Part shown: positions 1,581-25,944 of the stretch, one piece after another
Position numbering within the stretch: the stretch's first letter is position 1
Layout: each line of letters begins with the position of its first letter
IMG/VR virus record: IMGVR_UViG_3300045988_168162
Coordinates: 32,001-96,000 of that record
Origin: a virus
Length of the DNA: 64,000 nucleotides
Direction: 5' to 3' (one strand)
Program-made: the position numbers and the translations under genes
The notes under the pieces: model-generated
Seen by the model: the letters and a program-made list of their open reading frames with translations, nothing else
What the model was told of the DNA's origin: nothing
Databases searched by the model: none

Positions 1581-2190
1581 GAATTGGATTGAAAGTGTTT
1601 TCTTCTTGGCTCCCATTTCTATAGCCAGGATTCCGATAGTGGCGAACTATCCTAGGTGTTGGTTTATCTGCTAATGTTTACAGACTCTATAGCAGACCAC
1701 ATGCGAGTGGTGAAACCTTTGGCACCTGCCGGTTATCTGCAGGCACACGCTTTCAATCTTGGCGGGGCACTATCCCCAGCCTGTTGGTGGGACCTGGACC
1801 TTGCGGCCAGCCCCCGAGTTGTGCGAGACCTAGATCTGAGCGAGGCGAATCCTGCCTTTGCCGTTTGGCATCTCGCGGTAACGGAACCTGAATTCATGCG
1901 GATTTCACTGGGCGATATCTAATAAATAGACACCGAAACCGTTCATCATCCGAAGCAGCTGGATTCCGTTTTGCCCTGATTCCGGCTTTCGGCAGGTGAT
2001 CGGCCTGCTATAGAACCAGGGCAATGGTGCGGAATGAATCTTGACCAGACAGCCCGCGATTGGTATGTATAATGCAATGGGTGTGGCGCATGGTCTGGGT
2101 GACAAATTTGAACACTCGGATATGACCTGAGTGTGGCGCGTGTTGCAAGGGAATTCTCGTGCCTGGAGGCAGCTGCACATTTCGATTATA
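1581..2190 (-). ncRNA. Large ORF-free structured RNA candidate between tRNAs (copy A of the repeated 5' module; ROOL/GOLLD-like context)
   Basis: No credible ORF or SD. Flanked by tRNA genes on the same strand. Begins with the 42-nt module shared with 24105-24146 and 25863-25904. TATAAT lies about 52 nt upstream of the module. Confidence 0.4.
2093..2134 (-). repeat. Conserved RNA module, copy A (hairpin ACACTC-AGGTCATATCC-GAGTGT plus AATTTGTCACCCAGAC)
   Basis: 37/42 identical to copy C. The stem difference A3/T21 versus T3/A21 is compensatory. CCAGAC pairs with GTCTGG at 2045-2050. Confidence 0.8.
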
Positions 2191-2321
2191 CTGACAAAGT
2201 AGTGGCATAATCCACTGGACAACCTGGGCCGTGACTGTCATTAACCCTTGGCAGAAACCAGGTATTACTTTCGCGAGAATCCTGTGGCGCTGCTGTGCGC
2301 TGTTGGTAAGATTCATTCCGT

Positions 2322-2396
2322 TGGAGCGGCTGAGGGGCGTCGAACCCCCGTCCCCAGCTTGGAAGGCTGGTATACTGGCCGTTGTACGACAGCCGC
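2322..2396 (-). tRNA. tRNA-Gly (anticodon UCC), CCA encoded
   Basis: 75-nt cloverleaf: GCGGCTG TC GTAC AACGGCCA GTAT A CCAGC CTTCCAA GCTGG GGAC GGGGG TTCGACG CCCCT CAGCCGC T CCA. Confidence 0.85.
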
Positions 2397-2838
2397 ATAA
2401 TAGGGCGGATTATTTTTACATGCTACCGCCTTCGCATGTTGCCCATATACCAGCCTTGAGGACAGCGAACTGTCGCACAGCCGGACATATGACCTTGTAC
2501 CAAGGATTTTTAAGAAACGTTGAGCGTGTGAACCGTAATCATTAAGCGTTGACGAAAAATAAACTTTGAATCTTGAGCGTTAAGCTGTTAGCGTTGAGCT
2601 GTTAGCTTTCCCATCAATTGTCTTCGTTGGGCTGCGGGCTTCACAAGTATCCGCAGCACGATCAATAATGACAACGAAGACCGTCTTTTCAGCAATCATA
2701 ATTTTAATGATATGGCAGAGTTCCAGATTTCAGTTTCAACTCAGTCCTGAACCCCAAGGGGACGGAGCGGCTGTGATTTATCGCTTTCGATATACAGGCA
2801 AGATCTATTTAATAACGAGTGTTAAGCTCGGAAGGATA

Positions 2839-3501
2839 TCAGTATTCGATGGTGATGGTTGTGGTGGCGTTGGAGACCGAGAGGGCAGCATCCAGATCGT
2901 TCTGGAAGGTGGTTACCATAGTCTCCAGCTCCTCGATGCGGGACGAGATCGTCTGCTTGTTCTGCTTCAGGCCATCGAAAACCTCGTAGGTATTGGCCTT
3001 GACGTAGGCTTCGCGGGCAGCTTCGACCTCTTTGGGATCGGCCGCCTTGGCCGCCTTATCGCCGCCGTACAGAGATGCGATATAGGAATCCGTGCGCTTA
3101 TCCAGCGTGGCGTTTTCATCCTCGACTTCCGATACGGCGTTGCTGTACTGGTAGCGCAGCTGGTTGAGCAGGTCTTTATACGGCTGGTAGCCAACCTGTT
3201 TCATAACGATAGCCTCGGCCACGGTCATGGTTTTATCGCCGACCTGGATCTTGGTGGTGGCGTTGGATACGGGGATGGCCATTTTAATGGCGTTGCGGCG
3301 ATGGATCAGCTCACTGATTTTATCGTAGGCGGAGACTGCCTTTGCGGTGAACTCTTCTGTGGGCTGACCGAGCAGCTTTTTGGCATTCATCTTGGCGCTC
3401 ATGCAGAAGTTGGCTTCACCAATGGCCTTGCCGATGCGCTTATCAATGGTTTTGAGCTCGACAAGGGCGCGGTGGATGGTCATGGTTTCGGTAGTGGACA
3501 T
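2839..3501 (-). CDS. Hypothetical protein (220 aa, helical/coiled-coil character)
   Basis: ORF track. SD GGAGG upstream of ATG 3501. The antisense ORF 2668-3525 is a low-complexity shadow. Confidence 0.7.
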   Translation of the reverse strand: MSTTETMTIHRALVELKTIDKRIGKAIGEANFCMSAKMNAKKLLGQPTEEFTAKAVSAYDKISELIHRRNAIKMAIPVSNATTKIQVGDKTMTVAEAIVMKQVGYQPYKDLLNQLRYQYSNAVSEVEDENATLDKRTDSYIASLYGGDKAAKAADPKEVEAAREAYVKANTYEVFDGLKQNKQTISSRIEELETMVTTFQNDLDAALSVSNATTTITIEY

Positions 3502-3574
3502 GGGAAGGACCTCCTTGAAGTTTGAAATTTTATGGTTTATGTTTATGTGCCGTTAATTCTTGACGGCTTAAATA

Positions 3575-3603
3575 TCCCGGCCTGTATGACCGGGGTATTT
3601 TTT
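3575..3603. terminator. Hairpin CCCGG-N9-CCGGG with T-run on the + side and A-run on the - side (bidirectional-looking)
   Basis: Lies immediately 3' of the minus gene that ends at 3602. GTATTTTTTA follows the stem on the + strand. Confidence 0.45.
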
Positions 3604-4693
3604 ATTGGTCGCTGATTTCACACCAACGATAATAATTGATAGTGCAAAGGCGTTTATTGCAAGTGGAAACGTAGGAATCTGCAATTGCTTTTGCCTCTTC
3701 AGGCGGAAGATTCTCTTTTTTTAAACGATAGAATATCCCGCTTAACATGATGGTTTCAGGGGTAAGTGTTTTGCTGCGGAACGGAGAATCCGACGGCAAT
3801 CTTTCCTGATGGGGTTTCATATTGCGGCTAAACGTATGCAGATATTCAAGACGTGTGCCATTTTTAGCTTTGTTCTCTGCACGATCCGACTTGATATTAC
3901 TTCTTGCTTTTACGACACGGCGAAGAATGTAGTCGGTTTCATCGTCGCAATATCTTAACACAGTGGGAGTATAAGTGCCATCGTTACGCGGAGATTTATA
4001 GAGACCGTTACAAGTATCTGACACAATGGCCAGTTTTATTGTGCGTAAGAAATCTGCATCCGTGATACTGATGCTATGACCATTATACTGGATATACGCG
4101 GGGCTGTTTTCTGTCTTATCGTGAAAATCCTTATGAGTCATATTCTCGATTTCATTACGTGAGAAACCGATCCACAGTAAGACAAGGCTGGCAGCCAGGT
4201 GAATATACGTATCATTGGGGAATACCGCGAAACAGAAATCTTTAAATTCCTGCTCAGAAAAGAACATGGAATGACGATAATCTTCATCTGACTGAAATAC
4301 CAACTTATTGCCGATTACTGGCTTTTTGGTAGCATTGCCATCGCGGAGCATTTTTGTTCTGAAATAGATATCTTGTAGTGGATGCTGATTGCAGACAGCG
4401 TTAGGCACATAACCGGAAGAAGAGAGCCAATCAAGATACTGACGCATGGAGTTAATATAATAAATCAAGGAACGGTATTTCTCTGAATTTGTTTCTTTTA
4501 CAATAGCAGAATAGGAAAAATATTGTTCCAGACATTGCTCGACCTGGGAAGGTGTGAGATCTTGAAATGGGCACTGGACCTGCTTTTCAAAAAGAGCAAT
4601 TACTTTATTGATATATTTTTTAGTTGCGATGGTGGTGGTCTTATTATATTGATCGATATAGGAAATATGCGCGGAATCGTTTTGAGTTGCCAT
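3602..4693 (-). CDS. Hypothetical protein (363 aa)
   Basis: ORF track. A segment LLWIGFSRNEIENMTHKDF faintly resembles tyrosine-recombinase box I, but no HxxR..Y was found. Confidence 0.6.
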   Translation of the reverse strand: MATQNDSAHISYIDQYNKTTTIATKKYINKVIALFEKQVQCPFQDLTPSQVEQCLEQYFSYSAIVKETNSEKYRSLIYYINSMRQYLDWLSSSGYVPNAVCNQHPLQDIYFRTKMLRDGNATKKPVIGNKLVFQSDEDYRHSMFFSEQEFKDFCFAVFPNDTYIHLAASLVLLWIGFSRNEIENMTHKDFHDKTENSPAYIQYNGHSISITDADFLRTIKLAIVSDTCNGLYKSPRNDGTYTPTVLRYCDDETDYILRRVVKARSNIKSDRAENKAKNGTRLEYLHTFSRNMKPHQERLPSDSPFRSKTLTPETIMLSGIFYRLKKENLPPEEAKAIADSYVSTCNKRLCTINYYRWCEISDQ

Positions 4694-4751
4694 AGTAGGC
4701 CCACCTTTCTATAGTATTATTTTACACTATGTAGGTGGGCTTTTCAAGCCC

Positions 4752-5177
4752 TTAGCAGGGAATCGCTACTTGCTCAGACTGTGGAGCCGGCATATTAGAA
4801 ATGATCATGAAAGGATTTTGTGCGAGGATAGCCGGGATGACACGCTGCCAATTTTCGTTTGTGAAATAGCCAATCGGCTCAGACAATTGAGAATGCAGCA
4901 GCACATCGCGGCTTTCCACGACCAGGGTGGAATCATAGATAAGGCCATCCACTTCTGCCGCGGCAAAATCTACGTGAGCAGGATTGCGGCGGCCAAAGCG
5001 CTTTGTTGTGAAAGGAATCACCTCGCACTGGCCGGAGAAGCGGTTGTAGCGATTGTTGCTGATGACCAGATAGGGGTGAAGACCAACATACTTGTGAGTC
5101 GGGCTGGGGGTGCCCTGTTCGACGTACCCCAGCCGGATCTCTCCCAATTTAGGGATCGAAGTGCCGGGTGTAAACAT
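4752..5177 (-). CDS. PemK/MazF-family endoribonuclease toxin-like protein
   Basis: GEIRLGYV..HPYLVISNNRYNRFSGQCEVIPFTTK..NPAHVDF..DSTLVVESRDVL aligns motif by motif with MazF/EndoA (RPVLVIQND.GNRFSPT..V..IT..LPTHV). Confidence 0.75.
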   Translation of the reverse strand: MFTPGTSIPKLGEIRLGYVEQGTPSPTHKYVGLHPYLVISNNRYNRFSGQCEVIPFTTKRFGRRNPAHVDFAAAEVDGLIYDSTLVVESRDVLLHSQLSEPIGYFTNENWQRVIPAILAQNPFMIISNMPAPQSEQVAIPC

Positions 5178-5298
5178 AGGTTTAAATTCCTCCTTAAAGG
5201 ATATTCAGTAGGATTTTGGGTGCTTGCTTTGTTTTTTCTTACTGTAGCTATAGTATAGCATAGTTTTAACGGCACGTCAATAGCTTTTTGAAAAAAAT

Positions 5299-5604
5299 TT
5301 ATGCCATGGTAATGCGGAACGCCATGCCATGGGACAGCACTTGAAGTGCCACGCAAGAGGGGGTGGAGCCAAGCTCATATTCAACCTTAACAGCAGGGCC
5401 CTCGATACAAAAAGAAGCGGTATCGTTTACAAGATCCAACTGTTTTACGGTTCCGCCTGATTTATAAAGGGAAAGAGAAGCGCTGTTAAAACGGATCGTC
5501 AGGCCAGTTCGTCCATCAGGGCTATAATGATGTACGCTGATCGCATTGTACTGGCGAAAGATACTGGCAAGCTCCTGAAGCGTGATGGTTTTAGATTGCG
5601 GCAT
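5299..5604 (-). CDS. Hypothetical protein (101 aa)
   Basis: Internal ATG 5604 is preceded by GAGGAGGAGA. The longer ORF-track start lacks an SD. Confidence 0.55.
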   Translation of the reverse strand: MPQSKTITLQELASIFRQYNAISVHHYSPDGRTGLTIRFNSASLSLYKSGGTVKQLDLVNDTASFCIEGPAVKVEYELGSTPSCVALQVLSHGMAFRITMA

Positions 5605-5840
5605 GAAATTTCTCCTCCTCTTTGCCTGGATGTCCGAATTATAGGACACACTATATTGTATAATACTGTTATGTAAAGAAAGCACCCGCTGCCAGGCCCC
5701 TCATCCTGGCAACAACCGGCAACAACGATACAACCAACTGTTGTGTTTTGAATCTAGTATACACCAATCATTTCCAGATTGCAATAGGGAACCGGTAGCA
5801 ATTGGTTGCTCCTACTGAGATTTGAACGGAGGCATGTAGT

Positions 5841-6056
5841 ATGGTAAATGTTGGAAGCAAAATCAAATTATGGCGGACAAACCGCGGAATCAACCAGAAA
5901 CAGATGGCTGCCTTGACCGGGTTTAGTTTGCGGGCGCTGCAAGGATGGGAAAGAGGGGAGACATCACCCAGCCTGGACGCCGTAGTAGCACTGGCACTGG
6001 CTATGAACGTTACGGCGGATTGGTTGCTTGGGCTGGACGAAGATCAGAAGTCCTGA
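5841..6056 (+). CDS. XRE/Cro-CI family helix-turn-helix regulator
   Basis: IKLWRTNRGINQKQMAALTGFSLRALQGWERGETSPSLDAVVALALAMNV is the classic HTH_3 pattern. It is the only + gene in the leftward block. Confidence 0.8.
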   Translation: MVNVGSKIKLWRTNRGINQKQMAALTGFSLRALQGWERGETSPSLDAVVALALAMNVTADWLLGLDEDQKS

Positions 6057-6310
6057 AGTGCGGAGATCATTTCGCGCAGATCGTCGACCATGTTGGCAAG
6101 GTCATCCTTTTGTTCTTCCAGCGTGCCGATTCCTTCTTCCATTTCGATACCGCGGTCAGACTGCTGCAAAGATTCCGGCATGTTATCAAAGGCTTCGGAT
6201 TCATCATCATAGATTTGTTCGAGCAGGATCTGCTGTTCTTCGAGTGCGTCAGCAATAGTGCCTAGCCGTTTTGCGACGGACTTGAGCTGCTTACGACGAT
6301 CGTTATTCAT
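6044..6310 (-). CDS. Hypothetical acidic protein (88 aa)
   Basis: ORF track; compact fit to neighbours. Confidence 0.55.
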   Translation of the reverse strand: MNNDRRKQLKSVAKRLGTIADALEEQQILLEQIYDDESEAFDNMPESLQQSDRGIEMEEGIGTLEEQKDDLANMVDDLREMISALQDF

Positions 6311-6325
6311 AATAGACCTTCCTTA

Positions 6326-7792
6326 TTATAATAGGGGAGCATTGTGCTCCTGCATAAAAAGTTCTGCGTTTCGGCGCAGGAGACAGGGATCATTTTGGAA
6401 CTTGCCATCTACCACGCATTGCAGAAGATGGTTAAAGCATTGGCCGAACAAAGGGCCAGGACGATAGCCCATCTCCATAAGATCATGACCATTGATGTGC
6501 AGGTCCTGGATGGAGAGCTTGCGCCCCTCGAAAATTGCGATAGCGAGATACAGGTATGTGATTTCGGCCTTGCGCATAGCGTTCATAGTGCCAAACTTGG
6601 TATAATCGACACCGTGGGCGTAGAGATCAGCAAAACGGACAGCCATAAGCAGCTGGGCATTGACAGGACCAAGAGCGGCCAGCAGACGATTGGCACAGCG
6701 GACGGTGGGTTCAAATTGGCGGTCGTGGTTTTTGATGAGCAGGACGATCCGTTCCCGTTCCGCGTTAGAAAACTTGAGGCGGCGAAGAATGTCATCGGCA
6801 AGTTCGGCACTTTTTTCAGCATGGCCGTAAAAGTGGCCGGTGCCGCCATCATCGACCGTATAGCATACTGGTTTGGCAATATCATGCAAAAGCATCGTTA
6901 TGCAGAGCTCGAACCAGTGAGCGTGGATAGCAGCGGTAAACTCGGGGAGTTTTTGGGTGACGCTCTTCAGTTCCACGACAGACTTTAGAATATGATCTTG
7001 CACGGTGTAGATATGATAGGGACTGTGCTGCTGAAAATCACGACTGAGATAAAGTTCCGGGATAATTTCTTCCAGTACGTCGATATAATCGAAAAGAAGC
7101 AGACTGAAATCATCGTGCTCATAGCTGGAGGTGAAGATTTTGCGGAGTTCGGACTGTACACGTTCGGCGGAAAGACCGACAAGCATCTGAACATTCGCAT
7201 GAATTGCTGCTTCGGTTTGTACATCGATCGTCAAATCATAGCTGACGGCAAAGCGCAGGGCACGTAAGATACGCAGAGGGTCCTCCTGGAAGCGTTTGTT
7301 AGGGTCACCAACGCATTTGATGAAATTGCTGCACATATCCGCATAGCCTTTAAAGGGGTCGACGATCCCAATCGTGTAAGTGCCTTCTTGGGATGCATCA
7401 TCATTCGGTAAAATTCTGCCAGCGATGGCATTCATGGTGAAATCACGGCGGGCAAGATCTTCTGTGATATCATCGACAAACTCGACCGTATCAGGATGGC
7501 GGTGGTCTTTGTAAATGCCGTCTTTACGCATGGTTGTGACTTCGTACTGGCCGTCCGGCATGATAACTGTAACAGTGCCATGCTTGATGCCGGTATCAAT
7601 GGTAGGAGAGAAGAGAGATTTTACCGTGGTTGGGTCGGCCTGGGTGACAACATCATAATCGTGCGGTGTTTTATCGAATAGAATGTCCCGCATACAGCCA
7701 CCAACAAGGTAGGTTTTATAACCGGCACCTTCTAACTGGAGGACAAGGGTAACAAGATCATGCGGCAGGGGGATACCTTGTAGTACAGGCAT
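6326..7792 (-). CDS. cca: CCA-adding tRNA nucleotidyltransferase with C-terminal HD domain
   Basis: LVGGCMRDILF..PHDYDVVT, RKDGIYKDHRHPDTVEF, EDLARRDFTMNAIA (class II head domain). HD motif MLLHDIAKP. Confidence 0.9.
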   Translation of the reverse strand: MPVLQGIPLPHDLVTLVLQLEGAGYKTYLVGGCMRDILFDKTPHDYDVVTQADPTTVKSLFSPTIDTGIKHGTVTVIMPDGQYEVTTMRKDGIYKDHRHPDTVEFVDDITEDLARRDFTMNAIAGRILPNDDASQEGTYTIGIVDPFKGYADMCSNFIKCVGDPNKRFQEDPLRILRALRFAVSYDLTIDVQTEAAIHANVQMLVGLSAERVQSELRKIFTSSYEHDDFSLLLFDYIDVLEEIIPELYLSRDFQQHSPYHIYTVQDHILKSVVELKSVTQKLPEFTAAIHAHWFELCITMLLHDIAKPVCYTVDDGGTGHFYGHAEKSAELADDILRRLKFSNAERERIVLLIKNHDRQFEPTVRCANRLLAALGPVNAQLLMAVRFADLYAHGVDYTKFGTMNAMRKAEITYLYLAIAIFEGRKLSIQDLHINGHDLMEMGYRPGPLFGQCFNHLLQCVVDGKFQNDPCLLRRNAELFMQEHNAPLL

Positions 7793-8798: not shown

Positions 8799-8810
8799 AG
8801 GACCTCCTTA

Positions 8811-9446: not shown

Positions 9447-9457
9447 TGTGGGCCTCC

Positions 9458-10423: not shown

Positions 10424-10435
10424 TTTAAAACCTCC

Positions 10436-10813: not shown

Positions 10814-10826
10814 AAGATCACTCCTA

Positions 10827-12967: not shown

Positions 12968-13600
12968 TTATTTAAGCGTTTCGTTTACGAAAAAGATGTT
13001 GTTATGTTCGTAGCATTTATGACATGTCAGGCAGTTGCGGGCACCGCAGTTGATTTCGACATTGTGCTGTTTGCTGTACGCCTTATCGTAGACGGTGAAT
13101 ACCTTATCGATCCAGCTGTAGTTGGAGAAATCCTGCGAGACCTGATTGAGGTGGTCGGAGCTGTATACGCAAATCAGATTGTCCGGCTTGCCAAGCTCCT
13201 TAATGGCCTTATCCATGAAAGCTGCGTTCTTCGTCCAGAGAGCGATCGTACACCACGGATTCGCCCTGGCAATGCGGATGTAGTTCTTGGCGTGGGTCAC
13301 ATTGACAAGGTCGCCATGGCTTTCAAACCGGGCAATGCGGCTATTCAGGACGGGCAGCTCGTAAACCTCAAGGTCATGACTGGAAAGGATCTTGGTGTTT
13401 CCTGCATAGCGGTTTCGTGCGGCGGGATAGATGGCCAGACCACGCTTGGCATAGCAGTGTGAGCATACGCTGGTTTCATCCTTGGCACGCTGCTCACAAA
13501 TGGGATTGCAGAGCATACTGGTGGTGATGGTCGGAATGCCATTCATTTTGCCTTGCGGGTGAGAGATAAAAATCTGTTCTATGACACGATCATTTTTCAT
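12968..13600 (-). CDS. Cys-rich hypothetical protein (210 aa)
   Basis: ATG 13600 follows GAAAGGAT. Contains LCNPICEQRAKDETSVCSHCY and FESHGDL..ALWTKN. Confidence 0.55.
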   Translation of the reverse strand: MKNDRVIEQIFISHPQGKMNGIPTITTSMLCNPICEQRAKDETSVCSHCYAKRGLAIYPAARNRYAGNTKILSSHDLEVYELPVLNSRIARFESHGDLVNVTHAKNYIRIARANPWCTIALWTKNAAFMDKAIKELGKPDNLICVYSSDHLNQVSQDFSNYSWIDKVFTVYDKAYSKQHNVEINCGARNCLTCHKCYEHNNIFFVNETLK

Positions 13601-13749
13601 TTTATGTATCCTTTCTTGGCAGCGCACAAGAGCGGATACAATATTCAATTTTTATATCTCACCCTTGGTGGCTGGTATTACAGCATCAGCGCGACGAAAA
13701 GTGGTTGTTTTGTTTCAATCAGGGCAAGGAGATCCATTATGATTCCTCC

Positions 13750-13950
13750 TCACTCATCCATCGGGATGGCATCCGTCACCTCATAGTGGCCGTTTCGCAT
13801 GGAATAGCCAATGTTACTGGCAACATCAGCGCTCATGTTTGCATCACCATTATTCAATGCCTGACTTACCTTTTCGATGGCATCATCAGCGCTCTCAGCA
13901 TCAATGTAGACAGTCGTGGAAACAGAAATGACAACTTTGTAGGTATTCAT
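13750..13950 (-). CDS. Hypothetical protein (66 aa)
   Basis: ORF track; stop/start overlap with the next gene. Confidence 0.5.
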   Translation of the reverse strand: MNTYKVVISVSTTVYIDAESADDAIEKVSQALNNGDANMSADVASNIGYSMRNGHYEVTDAIPMDE

Positions 13951-14186
13951 AATACACTCTCCTTGAAAAAGCCCCAGTTTGTCATAGTCGATTCGATACG
14001 GTCGGAAAGATCGCCATAATCACAGCCGTAGATGTTTGTATCACTGCAGGATGCATCACCGATGGCATCCATGTCGCGGTCGGGATTGTCGATCTTGACA
14101 CCCTTTTCATCGAGAAAGTCTTCGAAGATGTCAATGATCTGGCCGATAAATTCGAGCTTATCGCTGTTTGTCATATGATATATCAC
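13947..14186 (-). CDS. Hypothetical acidic protein (79 aa)
   Basis: ORF track; operon packing. Confidence 0.5.
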   Translation of the reverse strand: MIYHMTNSDKLEFIGQIIDIFEDFLDEKGVKIDNPDRDMDAIGDASCSDTNIYGCDYGDLSDRIESTMTNWGFFKESVL

Positions 14187-14248
14187 TCCTTTGTGTAACC
14201 GGTGGCGGTGATTTCATTTTTAAAGTTGATCATTTTCAGAACCTCTTA

Positions 14249-14437
14249 TCAGTCATTCATATATTGGAAGTCGTGAATAATACCGAGCTTGTTTAGAAGA
14301 TCGATTAGGCCATCATGGACCCCTTCAATATAACCAGTATCATAACCAGGGTCAGAAATTTCAAGATTGTCGTCATTGTCTTTGATAAGAGCGGCAACAA
14401 CATTGCGGATTTGTGACGACGTATAGGAATTTTCCAT
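14249..14437 (-). CDS. Hypothetical protein (62 aa)
   Basis: ORF track. Confidence 0.45.
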   Translation of the reverse strand: MENSYTSSQIRNVVAALIKDNDDNLEISDPGYDTGYIEGVHDGLIDLLNKLGIIHDFQYMND

Positions 14438-16698: not shown

Positions 16699-16728
16699 AA
16701 ATGTTACCTCAATTCATAAAACGATTTC

Positions 16729-16947: not shown

Positions 16948-16961
16948 GTTGTCACCTTAAC

Positions 16962-17294: not shown

Positions 17295-17371
17295 TATGCT
17301 CTCCTTTGTTGGTTAAAAATGAATTCTTTTGTACATTGGGCGCCGAGGATATGTATGTGCCACGAGATATT

Positions 17372-17686: not shown

Positions 17687-17706
17687 GCGATTCGTCCCTC
17701 CCAACC

Positions 17707-18105: not shown

Positions 18106-18107
18106 GG

Positions 18108-18455: not shown

Positions 18456-18485
18456 TGAGAAACTTCCTTTCTTGAAAAAAATAAA

Positions 18486-18800: not shown

Positions 18801-18814
18801 AAAATCACCTGCCT

Positions 18815-19393: not shown

Positions 19394-19404
19394 ACAAAAT
19401 CACC

Positions 19405-19977
19405 TCACATTGCGGCATCAGAGAAAAGATCGGAAAAAGACAGCGTGGGGACGACTTGCGGTAAAGAGGTTGGCACAGCGTGGCAAAACTCATAGCCAGA
19501 AAAAACATACATTTCGAGGTGTGTGTTCTCTTTACAGAATATATGATAGTGATAAATACCTGCACCTCTGTGCGTTATATCCTTGATCGTGGCAAGGACA
19601 GGATTTTGAAACCTGGATTCAAATTCAGGCTTCGTAAAAAATGTCGGATTTATACTTTTGTCGACCCCATTCATATCGAAATCACGATCCAGTGCGTCCA
19701 TACTGCTGACGATGACCTGATCTCCTACCTGGTAGGGCTCATTTGGTTCCAGCATAGCATCTTTCCAGTACCAATTATTATCGACACCTTTAAAGGAGAT
19801 CCGACAAGCATTGCCCCATATGTCTGTTATTTTGCCCCAGCGGCCGCAGAGCTTTTGCATTTTGGGAGCAAAACAAAATTCATCAACCAGAAGGCAATCA
19901 TGATCATCCTTACGGTATTCTTGACAAAGGTCATCCCATTGGCGAACACGCACCCAGTCACCAATTTTATATTTCAC
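19405..19977 (-). CDS. Paralog family 1, member 3 (two domains; tail PTLSFSDLFSDAAM)
   Basis: KIGDWVRVRQWDDLCQEY..LCGRWGKIT, plus a second copy QVGDQVIVSSMDALDRDF. Confidence 0.65.
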   Translation of the reverse strand: MKYKIGDWVRVRQWDDLCQEYRKDDHDCLLVDEFCFAPKMQKLCGRWGKITDIWGNACRISFKGVDNNWYWKDAMLEPNEPYQVGDQVIVSSMDALDRDFDMNGVDKSINPTFFTKPEFESRFQNPVLATIKDITHRGAGIYHYHIFCKENTHLEMYVFSGYEFCHAVPTSLPQVVPTLSFSDLFSDAAM

Positions 19978-19989
19978 GGCAAAATCACC

Positions 19990-20322
19990 TCACATTGCAA
20001 AAAGTTCTTCAAAGGAGACTGTAGGTTCGACCTGGTCGGAAACAGGATCTAACATATCATCGTTAAAACCCCATAGCATGTAAGATATATCATCGGGAGA
20101 TAAAACATTGCCGTTATCATCCTGTAAATTGTAGCGATTACCAGACCTGCTTACCGTAAAAACCTGGCCGCAATACTTACGCATAGCTGGGTTAAAATAC
20201 AAACCGTTTACATTTGGCCCTGCCATGCTCGGTATCTTTTCATACTGCATAGCCCACTTAGAAACCAGCTCGTCCCAATCCTTGACGCGGACACAATCGC
20301 CGGGTTTGAATTTGTTTTTCAT
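19990..20322 (-). CDS. Paralog family 1, member 4 (tail PTVSFEELFAM)
   Basis: KPGDCVRVKDWDELVSKW..YCGQVFTV. Confidence 0.65.
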   Translation of the reverse strand: MKNKFKPGDCVRVKDWDELVSKWAMQYEKIPSMAGPNVNGLYFNPAMRKYCGQVFTVSRSGNRYNLQDDNGNVLSPDDISYMLWGFNDDMLDPVSDQVEPTVSFEELFAM

Positions 20323-20669
20323 TGCAGTGCCCCTTTGGCAAAAAGTTTTTCAAAAGACAAGGCGGGCTCGATCGCCATAGTAGGGACATCCTCGGCAGGC
20401 TCCAGCATTTTTTCACTGAATGACCATGTTATTTTGAAATCACGAGAGCGAAGAATATCCCCGGCATCGTCTACAAGATTGAAATAATCTCCGCTGTATT
20501 TGCAAATTGTATAAACATGACCGCAATACGGGATCATGCGGGAGTTAAATAAAAGACCGTCGATACGAAATCCGTCTACGACGGGCACCATATCTTTGGC
20601 ATTCTCGCTGATGGCTGTGAGTGCTTCCAAGCTTTTGACACGGACGCGGTCGCCGATACGATAGGGCAT
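20319..20669 (-). CDS. Paralog family 1, member 5 (tail PALSFEKLFAKGALQ)
   Basis: RIGDRVRVKSLEALTAI..YCGHVYTI. Confidence 0.65.
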   Translation of the reverse strand: MPYRIGDRVRVKSLEALTAISENAKDMVPVVDGFRIDGLLFNSRMIPYCGHVYTICKYSGDYFNLVDDAGDILRSRDFKITWSFSEKMLEPAEDVPTMAIEPALSFEKLFAKGALQ

Positions 20670-20672
20670 GTA

Positions 20673-21296
20673 TCATTCATCCTTTCCAAAAAGTTCTTCA
20701 AAAGAAACAGTGGGCTGTGTGATGATGGACTGGACAAATTTGCTGCAGTAATAAAGCGTGCTGAGGGGAAATTTCCAGGTAGTATCATTCTCGTCCTGCA
20801 GATTGGCAGCAGTAGTGTCGCCATTGCGATCATAACTTATATGAACGATCTGATACTTTTTAAGGCACATCTTTTTCATGCTTCTGGTGATAAAGATGTT
20901 ATTGACCATACAGTCAGGATCAACCAATGTGGCAGGGGGATTTGCCTGGGCAATGATTTCATTCCAGGGACGCACCCAGACGCTGCTGCCTACTGTTACA
21001 GGAACCTCAGAAGCAGGAACGGCTTCGTACAAAAGAGTATCAGAGAAGATCATCTGACCGCCATCTTTGTAGCGGACAACCATGCACGTCATAGGATCAA
21101 TAAGATCATAACGGATGAGGCATGTCCTTGCATGTATCTGCCCAACACGCATAAGACGGCCGCAGTAAGCAGCTTTTTCCTTATTGAAGCTGATACCGTC
21201 CCTTGTATAAAACGCCTCATCGTTACTACGGCCATTTTCCGCGAGGATCGTTTCAAGGCTGCGGACGATGACCCAATCTCCTGCTTTATAACTCAT
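20673..21296 (-). CDS. Paralog family 1, member 6 (two domains; tail PTVSFEELFGKDE)
   Basis: ATG 21296. KAGDWVIVRSLETILAENG..YCGRLMRV, plus a second copy VGSSVWVRPWNEIIAQ. Confidence 0.65.
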   Translation of the reverse strand: MSYKAGDWVIVRSLETILAENGRSNDEAFYTRDGISFNKEKAAYCGRLMRVGQIHARTCLIRYDLIDPMTCMVVRYKDGGQMIFSDTLLYEAVPASEVPVTVGSSVWVRPWNEIIAQANPPATLVDPDCMVNNIFITRSMKKMCLKKYQIVHISYDRNGDTTAANLQDENDTTWKFPLSTLYYCSKFVQSIITQPTVSFEELFGKDE

Positions 21297-21912
21297 ACAG
21301 CTCCCTCGCTTTTTCTTCCGGAATGATTTCGGCATGGCTGCTGCCAAAGAAAGCCTCAAACATTTCATCGTCGTGATCGGTATGGAAGCCGCTGCAGCTA
21401 TCATGGTATTCCCAGGAACCCGTGTCAGTATCATAGACATAAACATCATAGACGTAGCTGGGACCGGTGAGATAATCATCGTAAGCCCGGATCTCATCCC
21501 GAATCAGCTTCTGTGCAGTCTGCTGCCAGTTTTCATCCGTGCCGAACTGGTCGATCACATTCTGTTTGGTGCAGATGGCGTAACCAATCTGACCGGAATC
21601 CCACTGATCATGATAGGGCAGCACACTGATGGAAATACCGCTGTGCGCATACAGGAACAACGGCAGAGCCACGAACTCCTGACCGATTTCACGGCGGGAA
21701 TCCAGTTCCGTGCGCGGATCATCGCAGGTGATATCGCCCCAGAAATAGCGGTTCTTGGTGGTGACAAGTTCGATCGTGCCGTAATCTTCGTGCGGGTTGA
21801 CGGGGTCGGTATCGTAGCTGGCGGTGACAAAATACAGTTCCCCATCCTTGGTAAGAACATAAATACCATCCATGGTCTGGGTCGTTTTGACCTCGATCGT
21901 AAGAGCGGACAT
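21286..21912 (-). CDS. Hypothetical protein (208 aa)
   Basis: ATG 21912 shares one base with the upstream stop (TGATG). Contains LFLYAHSGISISVLPYHDQWDSGQIGYAI. Confidence 0.6.
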   Translation of the reverse strand: MSALTIEVKTTQTMDGIYVLTKDGELYFVTASYDTDPVNPHEDYGTIELVTTKNRYFWGDITCDDPRTELDSRREIGQEFVALPLFLYAHSGISISVLPYHDQWDSGQIGYAICTKQNVIDQFGTDENWQQTAQKLIRDEIRAYDDYLTGPSYVYDVYVYDTDTGSWEYHDSCSGFHTDHDDEMFEAFFGSSHAEIIPEEKARELYEL

Positions 21913-23336
21913 CAGGCTTCCTCCTTTTGGGAGCACTTTGTGACCACGGCATCGGCTGCGAAAACAAACCGGTCGGTCAGAGAATCGCTGTTGATGAAGA
22001 GCTCGCGGCGCAGATTGGCCTTGACGCCGAATTTTTCTTGAAAGGCAGTGAATAACGCGGGCCAATTCGGTTTCATCTCGTCATAGATCAGGTGATAGCT
22101 GGCGGCGCTGTGTGCGGTGCGGTCGTTGGTGACATCGACAACAGACTTGACTGCCGCATCAATACGGCTGCCGTTGTTCGGGTTGGCGGTGGTGGAACGC
22201 AGCCATTTGATCTTGGGCTTGGCGGAAGCTTTCTGCTCCGGCGTTTCCTGCTTAGGGGCTTCATTCCCAAAGCTGTTGGCATCAAACTCGGCCAGACCGT
22301 TTTTATCGTACTTGACCTTGGGGTTATCCTTGACGCAGTGGAGAATGGAATCGTTATAGAAATCCTCCAGCACCGTATCAAAGATCTCGCGCCACTGGCG
22401 GTTGTCCTCGATGGCGGTCATGGTGCTGAAGTTGCCGCCCGTGCGGGGATGCTTGTTCATGTAATCGCGGCGGAGCTGCCATTTGACAAAGCCATACGTC
22501 CTGGTCATTTTGTCGTAAATCAGATTGACGACTTCGCGGGAATCATCATATTTGCCGGGCTGATTGGCAAGGATCTTACGGACAGTGTCATATACTTCGC
22601 CCTTCCACTCGCTGGTGGTAGCGCGGTGCTTGGTCGGCTTGACATGGGGAATCTTGCACTGGGCGCTCTCCGCCTTTTCGTTGGCAGCAGCGGTGAACTC
22701 GGCATCAACAGCGGCGTCATCCGTGGATTGTGACTCGGCGACAGGTTCGTTCTTGGCAGTGAGCATGCGCTGGTTCTGCTCCAGGATATGGTTGGCCAGC
22801 AGGGACATGGTGTTCATCATGGCAGCCATGGCGGTGCGGGAATCCTTCTGATCCTCGATAAAAGACTGGACAAGCGTGTTGGTAGTCTCCTGAGACTTGA
22901 CCAGCGTATCAAACATCAATTTGAAGGTATCATTGCTGACGGCAGTCTGCTGGTCAGGGGCGGCGAGAACGGAGTTGCCGTTATAGAGGGACTCCATCAC
23001 ATTCCAGACAAAGTCCATGAACTTATCGGCTTTATCTTGGCGGGAGAAGCGGCAGATCTCCATGGTGCCACGAAGAGTGTAGACAAAAGTCTCATGATCT
23101 CGACCATCAGCCCCCCTCAAAGTGAGGTAGGCTGACAGGGGATTCAATCTGTCTGCATTTCTCGAATGGATCTGCTGAATAGCGTCATTAGGCTTTGCGT
23201 ATTCAAGGGCAGTCCCAATCTGATTGCGGGTCATATAGAATTCGTTGTCGTTGCCCTGCCAGAAATCACAGGTCAGAGTGCCAAAAGGCTTCTGGGTGGC
23301 GAGGGTGAGAGAAGTAGTTGCGGTAGGCATAATCAT
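21912..23336 (-). CDS. Bro-N / antirepressor-like N-terminal domain protein (474 aa)
   Basis: ATG 23336 follows GAAAGGAAA. FGTLTCDFWQGNDNEFYMTRNQIGTALEY..IQQIHSRN..ETFVYTLRGTMEICRFSRQDKADKFMDFVWNVMESL fits the BRO-N pattern. Confidence 0.6.
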   Translation of the reverse strand: MIMPTATTSLTLATQKPFGTLTCDFWQGNDNEFYMTRNQIGTALEYAKPNDAIQQIHSRNADRLNPLSAYLTLRGADGRDHETFVYTLRGTMEICRFSRQDKADKFMDFVWNVMESLYNGNSVLAAPDQQTAVSNDTFKLMFDTLVKSQETTNTLVQSFIEDQKDSRTAMAAMMNTMSLLANHILEQNQRMLTAKNEPVAESQSTDDAAVDAEFTAAANEKAESAQCKIPHVKPTKHRATTSEWKGEVYDTVRKILANQPGKYDDSREVVNLIYDKMTRTYGFVKWQLRRDYMNKHPRTGGNFSTMTAIEDNRQWREIFDTVLEDFYNDSILHCVKDNPKVKYDKNGLAEFDANSFGNEAPKQETPEQKASAKPKIKWLRSTTANPNNGSRIDAAVKSVVDVTNDRTAHSAASYHLIYDEMKPNWPALFTAFQEKFGVKANLRRELFINSDSLTDRFVFAADAVVTKCSQKEEA

Positions 23337-23362
23337 TTTCCTTTCTTTGAAACAGATTTCTT

Positions 23363-23653
23363 TTAGTATTCGTCCGGGAAGAGGACCGTGGTTACGGAAC
23401 GGTCCCACTCGGTGATGATCCAGATGCGCCAATCGGGATGATCGGCGGGGTTATAGACGCTGAACAGGCGATCATTGCCAGAGGTAAGAGCTTCATTATT
23501 GAGCTGGGCATCCTCGGCACAGCAATCACCCCAGTCAGCGTTTTCGTGGCGGGTGATACACTGATACACATAGGTAAAGAAATTACGGTCATCATTCATC
23601 TTGGCGGCGATTTCATCCGTGACTACAAGAGAGCCAAGCTTGAATTTACTCAT
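23363..23653 (-). CDS. Hypothetical protein (96 aa; ..IWIITEWDRSVTTVLFPDEY)
   Basis: ORF track; ATGA-type overlap with the upstream small ORF. Confidence 0.6.
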   Translation of the reverse strand: MSKFKLGSLVVTDEIAAKMNDDRNFFTYVYQCITRHENADWGDCCAEDAQLNNEALTSGNDRLFSVYNPADHPDWRIWIITEWDRSVTTVLFPDEY

Positions 23654-23817
23654 ACAGAAGCACTTCCTTTCGGGTTGGCCGCGAAGAACTCATCCTCGGG
23701 GCAGAAGGGGCAATACCAGGAACCGCCGCGGTAGAAAGCGCCGGGTGTGTCCGGCAGACATTCGTAACAGACGGTGCCGTCTACAAAAGCAAGGGTGTAG
23801 GTGATGGATTTCATCAT
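23650..23817 (-). CDS. Small zinc-ribbon-like protein (55 aa; CYEC..CPFC)
   Basis: Not in the ORF track. MMKSITYTLAFVDGTVCYECLPDTPGAFYRGGSWYCPFCPEDEFFAANPKGSASV. GAAAGGAAA upstream; its stop overlaps the next ATG. Confidence 0.55.
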   Translation of the reverse strand: MMKSITYTLAFVDGTVCYECLPDTPGAFYRGGSWYCPFCPEDEFFAANPKGSASV

Positions 23818-23845
23818 TGAATATCATTTCCTTTCTGTGTGGTTT

Positions 23846-24190
23846 TGTGTGATGTAAGCTGATAAGGTGGCTGCCTGGACCAGGAGGTGGTCCCAACTCG
23901 TTATTCAGAAGCTGCTGCTCAATTTTAGGAAGTCCTGGTACGATTTTCTGGGTACGAAGCACTGTTGATTGGACGTGTAAGTGAGCTAATCGCTATGGAC
24001 TCTGACGCTTTTGCCAGTCGTTAGTTGGCAGTAAACTCTGAATCTTCGCTGAAGAATCACTAGGATCGCGATGGCCATCGGCGACTCGCCGATCGTGGTG
24101 GGTGGACTGGGTAACAAATTCATACTCTCGGATATGACCTGAGAGTTTTTGCCTTGAACTACAAAGCAAAAGTAAACCTTACATAACACA
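23846..24190 (-). ncRNA. Structured RNA, copy B (345 nt, closed by a 13-bp long-range helix)
   Basis: 5' arm TGTGTTATGTAAG (24178-24190) pairs with CTTACATCACACA (23846-23858), 12/13 bp. G then UUUAC follow the 5' arm, as in copy C. Carries the 42-nt module. Confidence 0.5.
24105..24146 (-). repeat. Conserved RNA module, copy B
   Basis: 40/42 identical to copy C. CCAGTC pairs with GACTGG at 24014-24019, so the A-to-T change is compensated. Confidence 0.8.
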
Positions 24191-24213
24191 GTTTATAGAA
24201 TGTAAAAACATTT

Positions 24214-24377
24214 CTGCGGCATTACCGAGCGCTCCAGATGGGGGTCTGAAGCGCCGGCAAGAAAGGAAGAAAAAATGAACAAGGGCTGCATGGAATCACC
24301 ACAAACCATGCGCCCGGTGGCCGGACGAACAACCGAAAGAAAGGAAGAAACGGCTGAAGCGCCCGGTAACACCGCAG
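24214..24377 (-). other. RT-proximal element: 20-bp long-range helix enclosing 124 nt with two UUCUUCCUUUCUU tracts
   Basis: CTGCGGTGTTACCGGGCGCT (24358-24377, minus sense) pairs with AGCGCTCGGTAATGCCGCAG (24214-24233). 17 Watson-Crick pairs plus 3 G.U pairs that work only in the minus-sense RNA. Confidence 0.45.
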
Positions 24378-24398
24378 AAACGGCGGGGGAAAACTGAA

Positions 24399-25589
24399 TC
24401 AAGCTGCTTTGGGCTTGAGATCGTCAGAGATACAGGTGAGAAGATCGGCACCATATCTGGCGTTGTACTTTTGGATGACACCGGCAATGGTGGCGGGTTC
24501 TACACTAAGGTAGTAGCTGATATTGCCGCGGAACTTTTGGAGATCCTCTTCGTCCCATTTTTTGCCGTTGCGGCGGTCTTTGAAATAGGTTTCGATGGTA
24601 GCTTTAAGGATTTTGTGGTTTCGATAACCAACGGTAATATCGCCATCCTTATTGAGCATCAGACCGAGCATCCAGTTACGACCGGCGCGGGTGCCGAAGT
24701 GGGTCTTTTCGGTATTCAAGGTAAAGGGAGCATCGAGTTCATGAAGCATGGCGATCAGTTCCCGCTCGACCTTGCGGTAGTTGAAGAAGACCCGGCAGGA
24801 GATATGAATATCATCGGCATAGCGGGTGTAACAGATGCGGTCTGTGATGGGCGTGCCATCTGGGTTGACTTTGCCGCTTTGGAACTGGTTGAGCAGGCGG
24901 GCAAACTTATGGTCGAAGGGAATCATCATGACATTGGTGATGAAAGGGGAGAACGGGGTGCCCTGTGGCAGGCCGTTATTGAGAAACGCCAGGCTTAAAG
25001 CGCGGCGAAGCTCCCTGCGGCCGGTGGGGTCTGCCAGGATCAGGTTGAAGGGATAGATCTCTTCCATCTGTTTGAAGACAAAGTGCGGTGTGGTGGATGG
25101 GAAAAAGCCGTGGAAATCATAATGGCAGAAGTACCAGCTGCGGAACCGCTGATGCTTGATAACGGCATCCTTGGTGGAGCGGCCATTGACATAGGCAAAA
25201 GCGCAGGTGTGGTGGTCGGCAAACATCCAGCCGGACATCATATCCTTGAGCTGAGCCAATGCCTTTTTGAGTTCCGGGTGCGGGGCATCAATGGGACGCA
25301 TCTTGCCGCCGGTCTTTTTCGGGATCTCGAAATGATCGTAGAGTTCCCATTTGTTGGGGTAATCGATCAGATCCTTATAGCAGGTATTGAACATCTTGAG
25401 CTGGCTGATCATGGCGTCCAGGCAAGTGATTTTCATAATGCGCTCAGGAACTTTGTCGCATACAACGGTGCGGGTGGAGCCGTGACCGCCGGAACGTAAG
25501 GAATCCAGCGGAATATCGACACCGAGCATAAGTTCCTCGAACGTGATTTGACGAACGGTTTCGGGGGTATTGTAAGTTATGTATACCAT
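24399..25589 (-). CDS. Reverse transcriptase, retron-like (396 aa)
   Basis: FEIPKKTGGKMRPIDAP, GRSTKDAVIKH (NAxxH-like), YDFHGFFPS, LPQGTPFSPFITN, YTRYADDIHIS, RNWMLGLMLN (VTG-like). ATG 25589 follows GAGGT; the ORF-track N-terminal extension covers the structured RNA. Confidence 0.85.
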   Translation of the reverse strand: MVYITYNTPETVRQITFEELMLGVDIPLDSLRSGGHGSTRTVVCDKVPERIMKITCLDAMISQLKMFNTCYKDLIDYPNKWELYDHFEIPKKTGGKMRPIDAPHPELKKALAQLKDMMSGWMFADHHTCAFAYVNGRSTKDAVIKHQRFRSWYFCHYDFHGFFPSTTPHFVFKQMEEIYPFNLILADPTGRRELRRALSLAFLNNGLPQGTPFSPFITNVMMIPFDHKFARLLNQFQSGKVNPDGTPITDRICYTRYADDIHISCRVFFNYRKVERELIAMLHELDAPFTLNTEKTHFGTRAGRNWMLGLMLNKDGDITVGYRNHKILKATIETYFKDRRNGKKWDEEDLQKFRGNISYYLSVEPATIAGVIQKYNARYGADLLTCISDDLKPKAA

Positions 25590-25607
25590 AGTGGTGTACC
25601 TCGATTG

Positions 25608-25944
25608 TGTTTGTGATCTTGAAGGAATGATGCTGATCTTGCGAAGCTGATCAGCTTCCTGGATTAGCTCCATACAGTGGTGGAATTGGCTTAAAACTCC
25701 AATCAGACAACTGACTGATGTCCAATCTGCGGCTGCCAAGTCTATTACATGACCAATCGACATCGATTGCCCGCTAAGTTAGCTTAAAATGCCCTTGATG
25801 TGAGCGGCGGAACTCGGCGATTCTTGTGGCACCCCCAGATGCGCCTGGCGCGTGCCTGCCCGGTCTGGGTAACAAATTCGTACTCTCGGATATGACCTGA
25901 GAGTCGTTGCGATTTACAAAATGCAACGGTAAACATCACAAACA
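25608..25944 (-). ncRNA. Structured RNA, copy C (337 nt) directly upstream of the RT; msr-msd-like candidate
   Basis: Perfect 10-bp closing helix TGTTTGTGAT (25935-25944) with ATCACAAACA (25608-25617). G then UUUAC follow the 5' arm. Contains the 42-nt module and many local hairpins. Confidence 0.55.
25863..25904 (-). repeat. Conserved RNA module, copy C (ACTCTC-AGGTCATATCC-GAGAGT ACGAATTTGTTACCCAGAC)
   Basis: CCCAGA pairs with TCTGGG at 25834-25839. Confidence 0.8.

Follow-up and report, generated by a model that had tools for sequence, protein, structure and literature searches.

What is a short structured RNA module doing in three copies in one viral genome, and which gene does it serve? 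The question is posed by a 64,000-nucleotide (nt) stretch of DNA, positions 32,001 to 96,000 of the IMG/VR virus record IMGVR_UViG_3300045988_168162, the whole of which is referred to here as the window. A first-pass annotation had described a 42-nt module recurring there three times, always on the minus strand, and a re-reading of the sequence bears this out: the copies lie at 2134-2093 (A), 24146-24105 (B) and 25904-25863 (C), with 40 of 42 positions identical between B and C and 37 of 42 between A and C, to which we add 35 of 42 between A and B. Below we present the case that this module is likely to be the second hairpin plus linker of an msr-like 5' domain, belonging to retron-like non-coding RNA (ncRNA) genes that serve the adjacent phage reverse transcriptase (RT).

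The module and the closed units that contain it

The module represents a real, non-chance RNA family. Its 17-nt core CTCAGGTCATATCCGAG occurs exactly three times in the 64-kb window, as against a chance expectation of about 0.09 matches even at three mismatches, and three occurrences were reached in none of 100 shuffles. The stem of its hairpin reads ACACUC/GAGUGU in A and ACUCUC/GAGAGU in B and C, with the same 11-nt AGGTCATATCC between the arms; the difference is thus compensated, as had been claimed, and relatives display a third pair type at that stem position (ACCCTC/GAGGGT) along with further changes of the form CTCTT/AAGAG. The earlier proposal of selection on RNA structure gains strength from a wider sample, in which this stem is paired throughout (100% in 16 diverse units) and shows two-sided changes at five of its six pairs. 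Checked against Rfam, as the first-pass annotation had proposed, the module is covered by no known family: at gathering score, Rfam 15 (the families covered include msr, RT-1 to RT-19, ROOL, GOLLD, raiA and HEARO) gave no match to the units or the module in the window or in 12 related loci, and relaxing E to 10 brought up none to either in 23700-26100 and 1000-2600.

The conserved element is, however, longer than the 42 nt originally delimited: upstream of it, B and C have in common a G-UUUAC as well as a hairpin, P1, whose structure is conserved while its sequence is not. In both, the module is not free-standing and constitutes the second hairpin (P2) and the linker of a larger unit of about 335 nt. 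The order within the unit is a1, an invariant G, 3-6 nt (UUUAC, UAUAC or AAUA… among the units read), P1, P2, linker, variable core, YAG and a2. P1 is free in sequence; P2 has a 6-bp stem, usually with one bulged base, GG/CC and a small loop (AGGUCAUAUCC in the window); the linker is A/U-rich (…AAUUUGUUAC…); and the core, 190-290 nt in length, is fast-evolving and unrelated in sequence between units. The closing element, a2, is the exact complement of a1; the ribosome-binding site of the following gene comes directly after it. On the first reading, the closing helix formed by a1 and a2, the invariant G, P1 and the hypervariable core had all been missed.

In unit C, a1 and a2 form a 10-nt perfect complement anchored on the G, and the unit, co-oriented with the RT gene, ends 18 nt before its start codon. 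Unit B is situated downstream of that gene, starting about 210 nt after its stop codon in a non-coding stretch. Of its 13 a1/a2 positions 12 pair, with the seven beside the G being perfect and contiguous, and in its orthologue at the related locus L020 (related loci are numbered with the prefix L) the helix is fully compensated, at 13/13 (ATTATTATGTAAG/CTTACATAATAAT).

The a1/a2, P1 and P2 helices all covary strongly. Among 17 units parsed by hand from 10 loci, 16 have 7-16 nt directly 5' of the conserved G that perfectly complement a site 190-293 nt past the linker, and an anchored 8-mer match within 800 nt is expected by chance in about 1% of units. Across these 16 units the a2 site is preceded by AG in 15 and by CG in one, and the G directly 3' of a1 is present in all, including G25934 and G24177 of the window. 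The alignment of the 16 was built by hand, and MAFFT kept it column for column. Its paired cells amount to 96.8%, versus 60% in shuffled alignments (the observed value being reached in 0 of 500), and fall to 36-46% when the partners are slid by 1-3 columns; two-sided changes are seen at 21 of the 24 pairs, with a covariation score of 0.84 versus 0.20. Taken alone, a1/a2 shows two-sided changes at all 10 counted pairs and has 93% of its cells paired.

A structural descriptor (a1 of 7-8 nt or longer, then G, P1, P2 and a G-preceded a2 150-450 nt away) returned exactly two canonical units in the window, those of G25934 and G24177, against a background of two matches per 127 kb of shuffled sequence. 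Since these later scans required the G after a1, they add no evidence for its conservation. Dropping the hairpin constraints makes the search unspecific, with the generic pattern a1-G...AG-a2 matching 26 times in the window versus about 16 times in shuffles. Position counts over the scanned units yield the consensus W-U-R-N-A-G for the bases before a2.

Placed within these frames, the cores behave quite differently from their surroundings. In six phages with 92-100% identity in the ThiF-like neighbor, the RT and the unit ends, the segment corresponding to window 25860-25640 is just 45-57% identical, and identity drops sharply where the module ends on its 3' side and again some 25 nt ahead of a2. 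Relatives carry at least three alleles of the C core, and two alleles plus a mosaic of the B core; the alleles diverge by many point substitutions, retaining 71-87% identity versus about 97% in the flanks. We considered and rejected a reading of the locus as a diversity-generating retroelement (DGR) with template and variable repeats (TR/VR). A search of the window with blastn-short found no VR-like second copy of any unit core and the substitutions between core alleles have no adenine bias, which argues against a mechanism of that type and for diversifying change in a putative template; further, the RT matches retron rather than DGR models. The unit cores have no blastn match in GenBank phages either.

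Two other features reported with the module hold in part. The TATAAT/TATAAA hexamers 45-60 nt upstream of the copies are present (C 25969-25964, B 24196-24191, A 2190-2185), but a consensus scan gives no -35/-10 promoter upstream of any copy, and the hexamer before copy A is not kept in close relatives (alignment with L002 and L006). The B hexamer (24191-24196, minus) abuts a1 and the C hexamer (25964-25969, minus) lies 19 nt before it; placed just before a1 in this way, the hexamers could make each unit its own transcript, and in unit B a start about 7 nt downstream of the hexamer would leave exactly the seven perfectly paired bases of a1. Likewise, the trailing CCAGAC/CCAGTC does find a complement in all three window copies, but family-wide there is just a slight enrichment, with a complement of at least 6 nt to the trailing segment in 33% of 90 related units versus 22% in shuffles.

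Table 1. Coordinates and sequences of the features discussed; positions are those of the window, and the closing arms of related loci are given for comparison.
Feature	Coordinates	Strand	Description
Unit C	25608..25944	minus	complete retron-like ncRNA gene
Unit C, 5' part	a1 25944-25935; G 25934; UUUAC 25933-25929; P1 25928-25905	minus	
Unit C, module part	P2 25904-25882; linker 25881-25868	minus	P2 is the module hairpin; linker ACGAAUUUGUUACC
Unit C, 3' part	variable core 25867-25622; CAAG 25621-25618; a2 25617-25608	minus	
Unit B	23846..24190	minus	complete retron-like ncRNA gene
Unit B, 5' part	a1 24190-24178; G 24177; UUUAC 24176-24172; P1 24171-24147	minus	
Unit B, module part	P2 24146-24124; linker 24123-24110	minus	P2 is the module hairpin; linker AUGAAUUUGUUACC
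Unit B, 3' part	variable core 24109-23863; UCAG 23862-23859; a2 23858-23846	minus	
Copy A	2030..2320	minus	derived, non-canonical unit
Copy A, outer arms	a1' 2320-2308; a2' 2042-2030	minus	13-nt perfect inverted repeat, CGGAAUGAAUCUU and AAGAUUCAUUCCG
Copy A, module part	P2 2134-2112; linker 2111-2098; CCAGAC 2098-2093	minus	CCAGAC pairing with GUCUGG 2050-2045
RT gene	24399..25589	minus	396 aa, retron-type, catalytic motif YADD
ThiF/E1-like adenylyltransferase gene	25994..26677	minus	227 aa, directly upstream of unit C
Gene Y	26664..27296	minus	210 aa, JAB/MPN+ (JAMM)-like
Gene X	27300..28673	minus	457 aa, long central helix, C-terminal alpha/beta domain
Structured GC-rich region	24200..24398	minus	between RT stop and unit B
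a1/a2, window unit C			UGUUUGUGAU / AUCACAAACA
a1/a2, L020 upstream unit			UUUUGUGAA / UUCACAAAA
a1/a2, L020 downstream unit			AUUAUUAUGUAAG / CUUACAUAAUAAU
a1/a2, L021			UUUUUUUGUUUGAU / AUCAAACAAAAAAA
a1/a2, L030			GAAAUUGGAU / AUCCAAUUUC
a1/a2, L032			UUGAGAAAU / AUUUCUCAA

The reverse transcriptase, its partners and their relatives

The genes at the RT locus run leftward. The RT open reading frame (ORF) as read is 454 aa long (24399-25763); however, its homologues measure about 380-410 aa, which places the true start at Met59 (25589) and leaves about 400 nt non-coding after the preceding ThiF-like gene. The protein is recovered by Pfam RVT_1 (5.9e-16) and by the PADLOC model RT_II-A (3.9e-45); each of the 25 best-scoring PADLOC models is that of a retron RT. 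A PDB sequence search agrees, in that all 13 matches are retron RTs and none is a structure of the defense-associated RTs (DRTs) DRT2 or DRT9; the Drt2 model gives 28 bits, versus 172 for retron_St85_RT. Identity to the classical retron RTs is about 25-29%. Y257, D259 and D260 are invariant in the RT alignment, and the protein bears an N-terminal extension of about 75 aa. At L021, whose RT is 66% identical, a second RVT_1 protein of 448 aa is encoded at 13000-14346, 1.8 kb downstream of the first.

The RT is part of a four-gene cassette conserved throughout, comprising X, Y (JAB/JAMM-like), the ThiF/E1-like gene and the RT gene; the X-Y-ThiF set (25994-28673 of the window, minus) is syntenic in about 50 loci across RT identities of 34-100%. 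The ThiF-like protein is recognized by Pfam ThiF (1.4e-20) and by the E1-E2 models of PADLOC; in 53 related loci its gene precedes that of the RT, with the protein being 41-100% identical and conserved even better than the RT. Y stands beside ThiF in nearly all loci. It has no Pfam match above threshold and no PDB sequence match, and we call it JAB-like on the strength of a motif that is invariant in the alignment, H99-x-H101-x7-S109-x2-D112, together with a low-confidence structure model (predicted local distance difference test, pLDDT, 49) whose top Foldseek PDB matches are all MPN/JAB, at TM-scores of 0.2-0.33. X is syntenic in most of the related loci; Pfam, PADLOC and NCBIfam scans gave no family match for it, and its AlphaFold2 model (pLDDT 78.6) has no Foldseek match in the PDB better than E 0.9. 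No E2 domain or ubiquitin-like protein was identified among the partners. From the conserved JAB-like and ThiF/E1-like genes, we may speculate that the system is controlled by, or acts through, ubiquitin-like conjugation.

How far does this arrangement extend? The core CTCAGGTCATATCCGAG is found in just three IMG/VR contigs, all with a 97-98% identical RT and with 2-4 copies each, and a looser pattern adds five contigs with the stem ACCCUC/GAGGGU beside a 61% identical RT. A relaxed pattern, AGGTCATATCC-N8-14-AATTTGT, returns beyond the three close relatives just chance matches in coding sequence. Homologues of the RT, in turn, are numerous in gut metagenomes, and at RT identities of 85, 70, 66, 63, 63, 51 and 46% one meets the same order: a gene of about 450 aa, a gene of about 200-300 aa, ThiF, a gap, the RT and another gap, with the ThiF-RT gap of these seven loci spanning 300-500 nt. 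A scan of the GTDB representative genomes with the RT alignment added about 47 loci with RT identities of 34-62%. Nearly all of these belong to metagenome-assembled genomes (MAGs) of Clostridia recovered from the guts of humans, termites, rabbits, chickens and ruminants, and a few were binned to Bacteroidota. Among GenBank phages, tblastn of the RT produced one record within the family, MT835544.1, an unannotated uncultured human-gut phage at 44% identity, while neither megablast of both regions nor distant blastn of the whole units B and C gave a match.

Across this set of gut Clostridia phages or MAGs, with RTs 34-100% identical, the descriptor scan recovers 87 units, no two identical, spread over 46 loci; their median length is 296 nt, and nearly all are on the RT strand. 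Loci carry one to five units, and 28 of the 46 have two or more. By the strict descriptor, at least 29 of 53 loci have a unit in the ThiF-RT gap, as do 28 of 41 by an anchored a1/a2 search; one or more lie downstream of the RT in 29 of 53, and the gap reaches at least 300 nt in 51 of 53. In L037, L042 and L030, units stand in tandem with no gene between them. All the viral and metagenomic contigs that truly bear the module belong to this phage group, and the RT is present wherever that region is available.

Two neighboring features deserve mention. The GC-rich region ahead of unit B has a closing helix of about 20 bp (GCGGUGUUACCGGGCGCUUCAG with CUGGAGCGCUCGGUAAUGCCGC) enclosing internal hairpins and an internal repeat CCGG(G)CGCUUCAG; L019 and L020 retain its structure and L021 does so in part; its absence from L030 and L025 indicates a lineage-specific element. 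It may or may not belong to the RT system. Following unit B and two small ORFs, a Bro-N/anti-repressor-like gene (a 506-aa ORF at 21912-23432, minus) is kept solely in relatives whose RT is at least 51% identical and is, thus, probably phage backbone rather than part of the system.

Copy A and the neighboring tRNA region

The three copies had been presented as one three-member family. All three do share the module, but copy A is not equivalent to B and C. It is 22 kb away from them, between a tRNA-Gly gene and a series made up of a match to the Rfam family DUF3800-XI, tRNA-Pro and tRNA-Met, and its a1' starts 2 nt after the CCA end of tRNA-Gly. After the 10-nt a1 it reads C-UUACC, as against G-UUUAC in B and C, with the helix extended over AAG; the C in place of G is fixed in copy A in the alignment with L002 and L006. 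About 170 nt, variable among close relatives and with non-triplet indels, intervene between the a1' arm and P2, and the part downstream of P2 is nearly invariant in the same relatives. A coding reading (ORF 2008-2316) was rejected in view of 5- and 11-nt indels in close relatives and the lack of a Pfam match; the non-triplet indels mark the segment upstream of P2 as non-coding. To judge from its sequence, copy A is a derived form that keeps the handle but probably cannot prime. It is probably a non-templating derivative, for instance an RT-binding decoy or a regulator, or else a relic; processing of the tRNA-Gly precursor would set it free. Its module is flanked by the two occurrences of a 9-nt direct repeat, GCGCCACAC (2131-2139 and 2081-2089, minus), which also supplies the 5' half of the stem; the repeat could be a product of chance or an insertion scar.

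Close relatives have a fourth copy, D, with the stem AACUC/GAGUU (L001 at 883, L003 at 1266; also L190, L209 and L219). It is located about 1.8 kb downstream of copy A, and its linker forms a 9-nt inverted repeat with a sequence about 185 nt upstream; the window is without this copy, though the corresponding position should fall inside. Given a geometry similar to that of copy A, the D copy is likewise a derived form that keeps the handle and probably cannot prime.

Between copy A and tRNA-Pro lies another structured region of about 330 nt (window 1686-2014, minus), with nested helices pairing 2014-2002 with 1698-1686 and 1998-1990 with 1731-1723. The DUF3800-XI RNA match (1765-1814; 44.3 bits, gathering 37.8), the sole non-tRNA Rfam match, falls inside these helices. 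The region is almost invariant in close relatives, and no DUF3800 protein was found among the neighboring ORFs tested. More generally, tRNA genes recur beside units (window 1240-2396; L021 11650-11860; L058, L060, L049 and L052): at L021 the a2 of the downstream unit is followed, after 8 nt, by a tRNA, and several distant relatives have tRNA arrays beyond the RT locus. It may be that tRNA processing trims the ends of the ncRNAs.

Competing explanations and known systems

The combination of a1/a2 closure, an inner G, 5' stem-loops and a variable 3' part beside a retron-like RT leads us to read the module as the RT-recognition part of the units. The guess of an RT recognition handle, one of those made when the module was first described, is thereby the one favored by the evidence: the units flank the RT gene, and this arrangement is kept in RT homologues down to 34% identity. 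Building on the observed architecture, the covariation, the position between ThiF and the RT with its repetition downstream, the multiplicity and the hypervariable cores, we advance the following mechanism. The pairing of a1 with a2 would set the G beside the template's 3' end. The shared P1/P2/linker handle would be recognized by the RT, which would prime on the G, with a 2'-OH branch as in retrons, and copy the variable core from the base just 5' of a2, so that one RT would make a small repertoire of different single-stranded DNAs (ssDNAs). A broader proposal we hold only tentatively, as a possibility short of an expectation: that this is an undescribed retroelement of a widespread group of gut Clostridia phages, in which the RT, together with the E1-like/JAB-like pair and X, copies two to five rapidly diversifying ncRNAs into ssDNAs used in conflicts with the host or rival phages, with the conjugation enzymes switching the RT on and off. 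In such conflicts the ssDNAs would serve, for example, as decoys for DNA-sensing defenses or as exclusion effectors.

Several points weigh against the retron-like interpretation. Its priming and templating steps are all carried over from retrons. The match of the RT to retron_St85_RT (1.8e-50, 172 bits) is under the NCBIfam cutoff of 235. Retron RTs have as hallmarks an NAxxH motif in the finger region and a VTG after the YxDD; in a HMMER alignment with a solved retron RT neither is kept, with AVIKH facing NALAH and MLG facing VTG. Copy A does not fit the canonical layout and is not found by the canonical-unit scan. Single-sequence folding of three regions gives unexceptional whole-unit energies (z -1.0 to -1.8), and the variable core has no one obvious long hairpin of the msd type. 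A covariance model of P2 and the linker from distant relatives is too weak to recover the window copies significantly, ranking B first (E 1.4) and C sixth (E 3.7) and not finding A. Finally, the a1/a2 numbers are inflated, because the structure guided the building of the alignment and complementarity the choice of a2.

An alternative, though an unlikely one, is that the units are RT templates that work like UG27-type arrays or DRT-type ncRNAs and not like retrons; the cDNA would then come from an internal hairpin, with no 2',5' branch on the G, accessory proteins (here X, JAB or ThiF) would be needed, and the a1/a2 helix would be merely the base of the unit. UG27 RTs, of 380-450 aa, come from Bacillota and Bacteroidota (pro)phages of the gut (bioRxiv 10.64898/2026.09.22.753630, a preprint dated 24 September 2026; Mestre et al. 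2022, PMC9226505). Their ncRNA arrays consist of units of about 150 nt (135-167), conserved in structure and diverse in sequence, in which the motifs AUCN7UANAG and UUYA bracket a central hairpin, and which have been found experimentally to be copied into cDNA hairpins of 50-100 nt, with two domain-less accessory proteins being required (10.64898/2026.09.22.753630). The ecology and the logic are alike, with gut prophages, one RT of 380-450 aa, diverse structured units and domain-poor accessory proteins; the W-U-R-N-A-G before a2 faintly resembles the UANAG end of the UG27 motif, and the loss of the retron hallmark motifs also suits this alternative. Yet in the window, L020, L042 and L065 matches to AUCN7UANAG are no more frequent than chance would give (0-7 per strand), with no window match inside a unit, and position counts show neither AUC at -15 nor UUYA after a1. 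Moreover, the units are about 300 nt long rather than 135-167, the catalytic motif is YADD rather than YSDD, the RT is far nearer to retron models than to Drt2 and matches no DRT2 or DRT9 structure, and the cassette has a ThiF, as against the three proteins of the preprint, of which the accessory ones lack conserved domains. The separation from UG27 is drawn on motifs, unit length, model scores and cassette content, and a distant relationship may exist; the candidate UG27-like GenBank records L113 and L114 have no such arrays and so are of no use as references. None of the 79 loci kept from the GTDB scan is a relative in Blautia hansenii or Bacteroides coprophilus.

Two alternatives remain. 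That the module is a cis-acting leader unrelated to the RT, heading several leftward transcription units, whether a put/nut-like antitermination element, as had been suggested earlier, or a processing or stability element, is in our view very unlikely. Such a leader would suit the -10-like hexamer 45-60 nt upstream of each copy, the varied downstream cargo (RT, small ORFs and tRNA genes) and the presence of a hairpin whose loop is invariant and which precedes a conserved single-stranded stretch. But the units are discrete modules of about 300 nt, closed by a distal a2 directly before the next gene, with a1/a2 covarying; some follow each other in tandem without an intervening gene. Their position relative to the RT is fixed across RT identities of 34-100%, there is no module-bearing contig without an RT where the region is available, no -35/-10 promoter is predicted, and a hypervariable non-coding insert of about 250 nt is unexpected in a leader. 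There is only a very slight chance, too, that the repeats act as DNA, be it as boundaries of modular exchange, such as promoter/stem-loop cassettes resembling the PeSLs of T4-type phages, or as sites of site-specific recombination. This would account for the swapped sequence just downstream between close relatives, and the sharp breakpoints at the module 3' end and about 25 nt before a2, the mosaic B-core alleles and the GCGCCACAC repeat around module A may be cited for it. Recombination at the conserved unit ends does probably occur; however, at conserved flanks it is an expected by-product of the handle and is compatible with an RNA role, the cores diverge by point substitutions too (71-87% versus about 97% in the flanks), and the compensatory changes in P1, P2 and a1/a2 over 16-87 units speak for RNA pairing, and not a DNA site, as what is under selection.

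Retrons are bacterial anti-phage systems in which a single RT is combined with a single ncRNA and a single effector, and they have found wide use for producing ssDNA inside cells. In the present case the retron RNA logic appears on the side of the phage, and each enzyme has several templates, which are interchangeable. Should the units indeed be reverse-transcribed, the system would be a natural multiplexed retron, relevant to multi-donor genome editing, in which the handle of about 80 nt and the 3' YAG-a2 would define the place for inserting a custom template. It would also be a second independent case, besides UG27, of hypervariable cDNA repertoires in phages, and the first link of reverse transcription to the ubiquitin-like conjugation machinery. 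Regardless, the units are a new RNA family for annotation of the Rfam type, and one that explains 300-700-nt "empty" intergenic regions in many gut phages.

Among characterized systems, one close likeness is to the msr-msd of retrons (Ec86, and St85/Sen2 of type II-A): an ncRNA gene directly upstream of, and co-oriented with, a retron-like RT, a1/a2 terminal inverted repeats, a G immediately 3' of a1, conserved 5' stem-loops and a variable 3' part. In contrast to retrons, there are several ncRNA genes per RT (two canonical and one derived in the window, up to five elsewhere), which flank the RT on either side, at times in tandem; the variable part of about 250 nt is without a single long hairpin; the RT has an N-terminal extension, lacks NAxxH and VTG and stays under the NCBIfam retron cutoff; and it is gut phages that carry the system. 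Its partners differ as well: Mestre et al. 2020 (PMC7736814) distinguish 13 retron types with a table of associated effectors, and X, JAB-like and ThiF/E1-like partners are absent from those effector types.

With UG27 the element has in common the gut phage setting, several structured and diverse units per locus, accessory proteins without recognizable domains and arrays that gain and lose units; it differs in its retron-style closed units of about 300 nt, in having YADD and not YSDD, in the affinity of its RT to retron models rather than to those of class 2 UG/DRT2, and in its conserved ThiF. DRT2 (UG2) and DRT9 (UG28) resemble it in having a structured ncRNA beside the RT as template, with structure more conserved than sequence, but theirs is a single ncRNA, with concatemeric or homopolymeric products, in bacterial defense islands, and the RT described here is only marginally Drt2-like (28 bits). 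The ThiF/E1-like gene beside a JAMM/JAB-like one, near a nucleotide-polymerizing enzyme, is reminiscent of Cap2/Cap3 of type II cyclic-oligonucleotide-based anti-phage signaling systems (CBASS), of Bil and of PRTRC, with the difference that here the partner is an RT with ncRNAs and not a cGAS-like enzyme, and that no E2 or ubiquitin-like protein was identified. An E1/JAB pair beside a polymerase recalls the regulation of CBASS type II and might be followed as a lead. The literature searched held nothing on ThiF or JAB with a retron RT, nor on natural multi-ncRNA retrons, the UG27 preprint being nearest. The element, for which Rfam has no entry and the searchable literature no description, is probably a variant of the retron kind that is phage-borne, multi-template and E1/JAB-associated.

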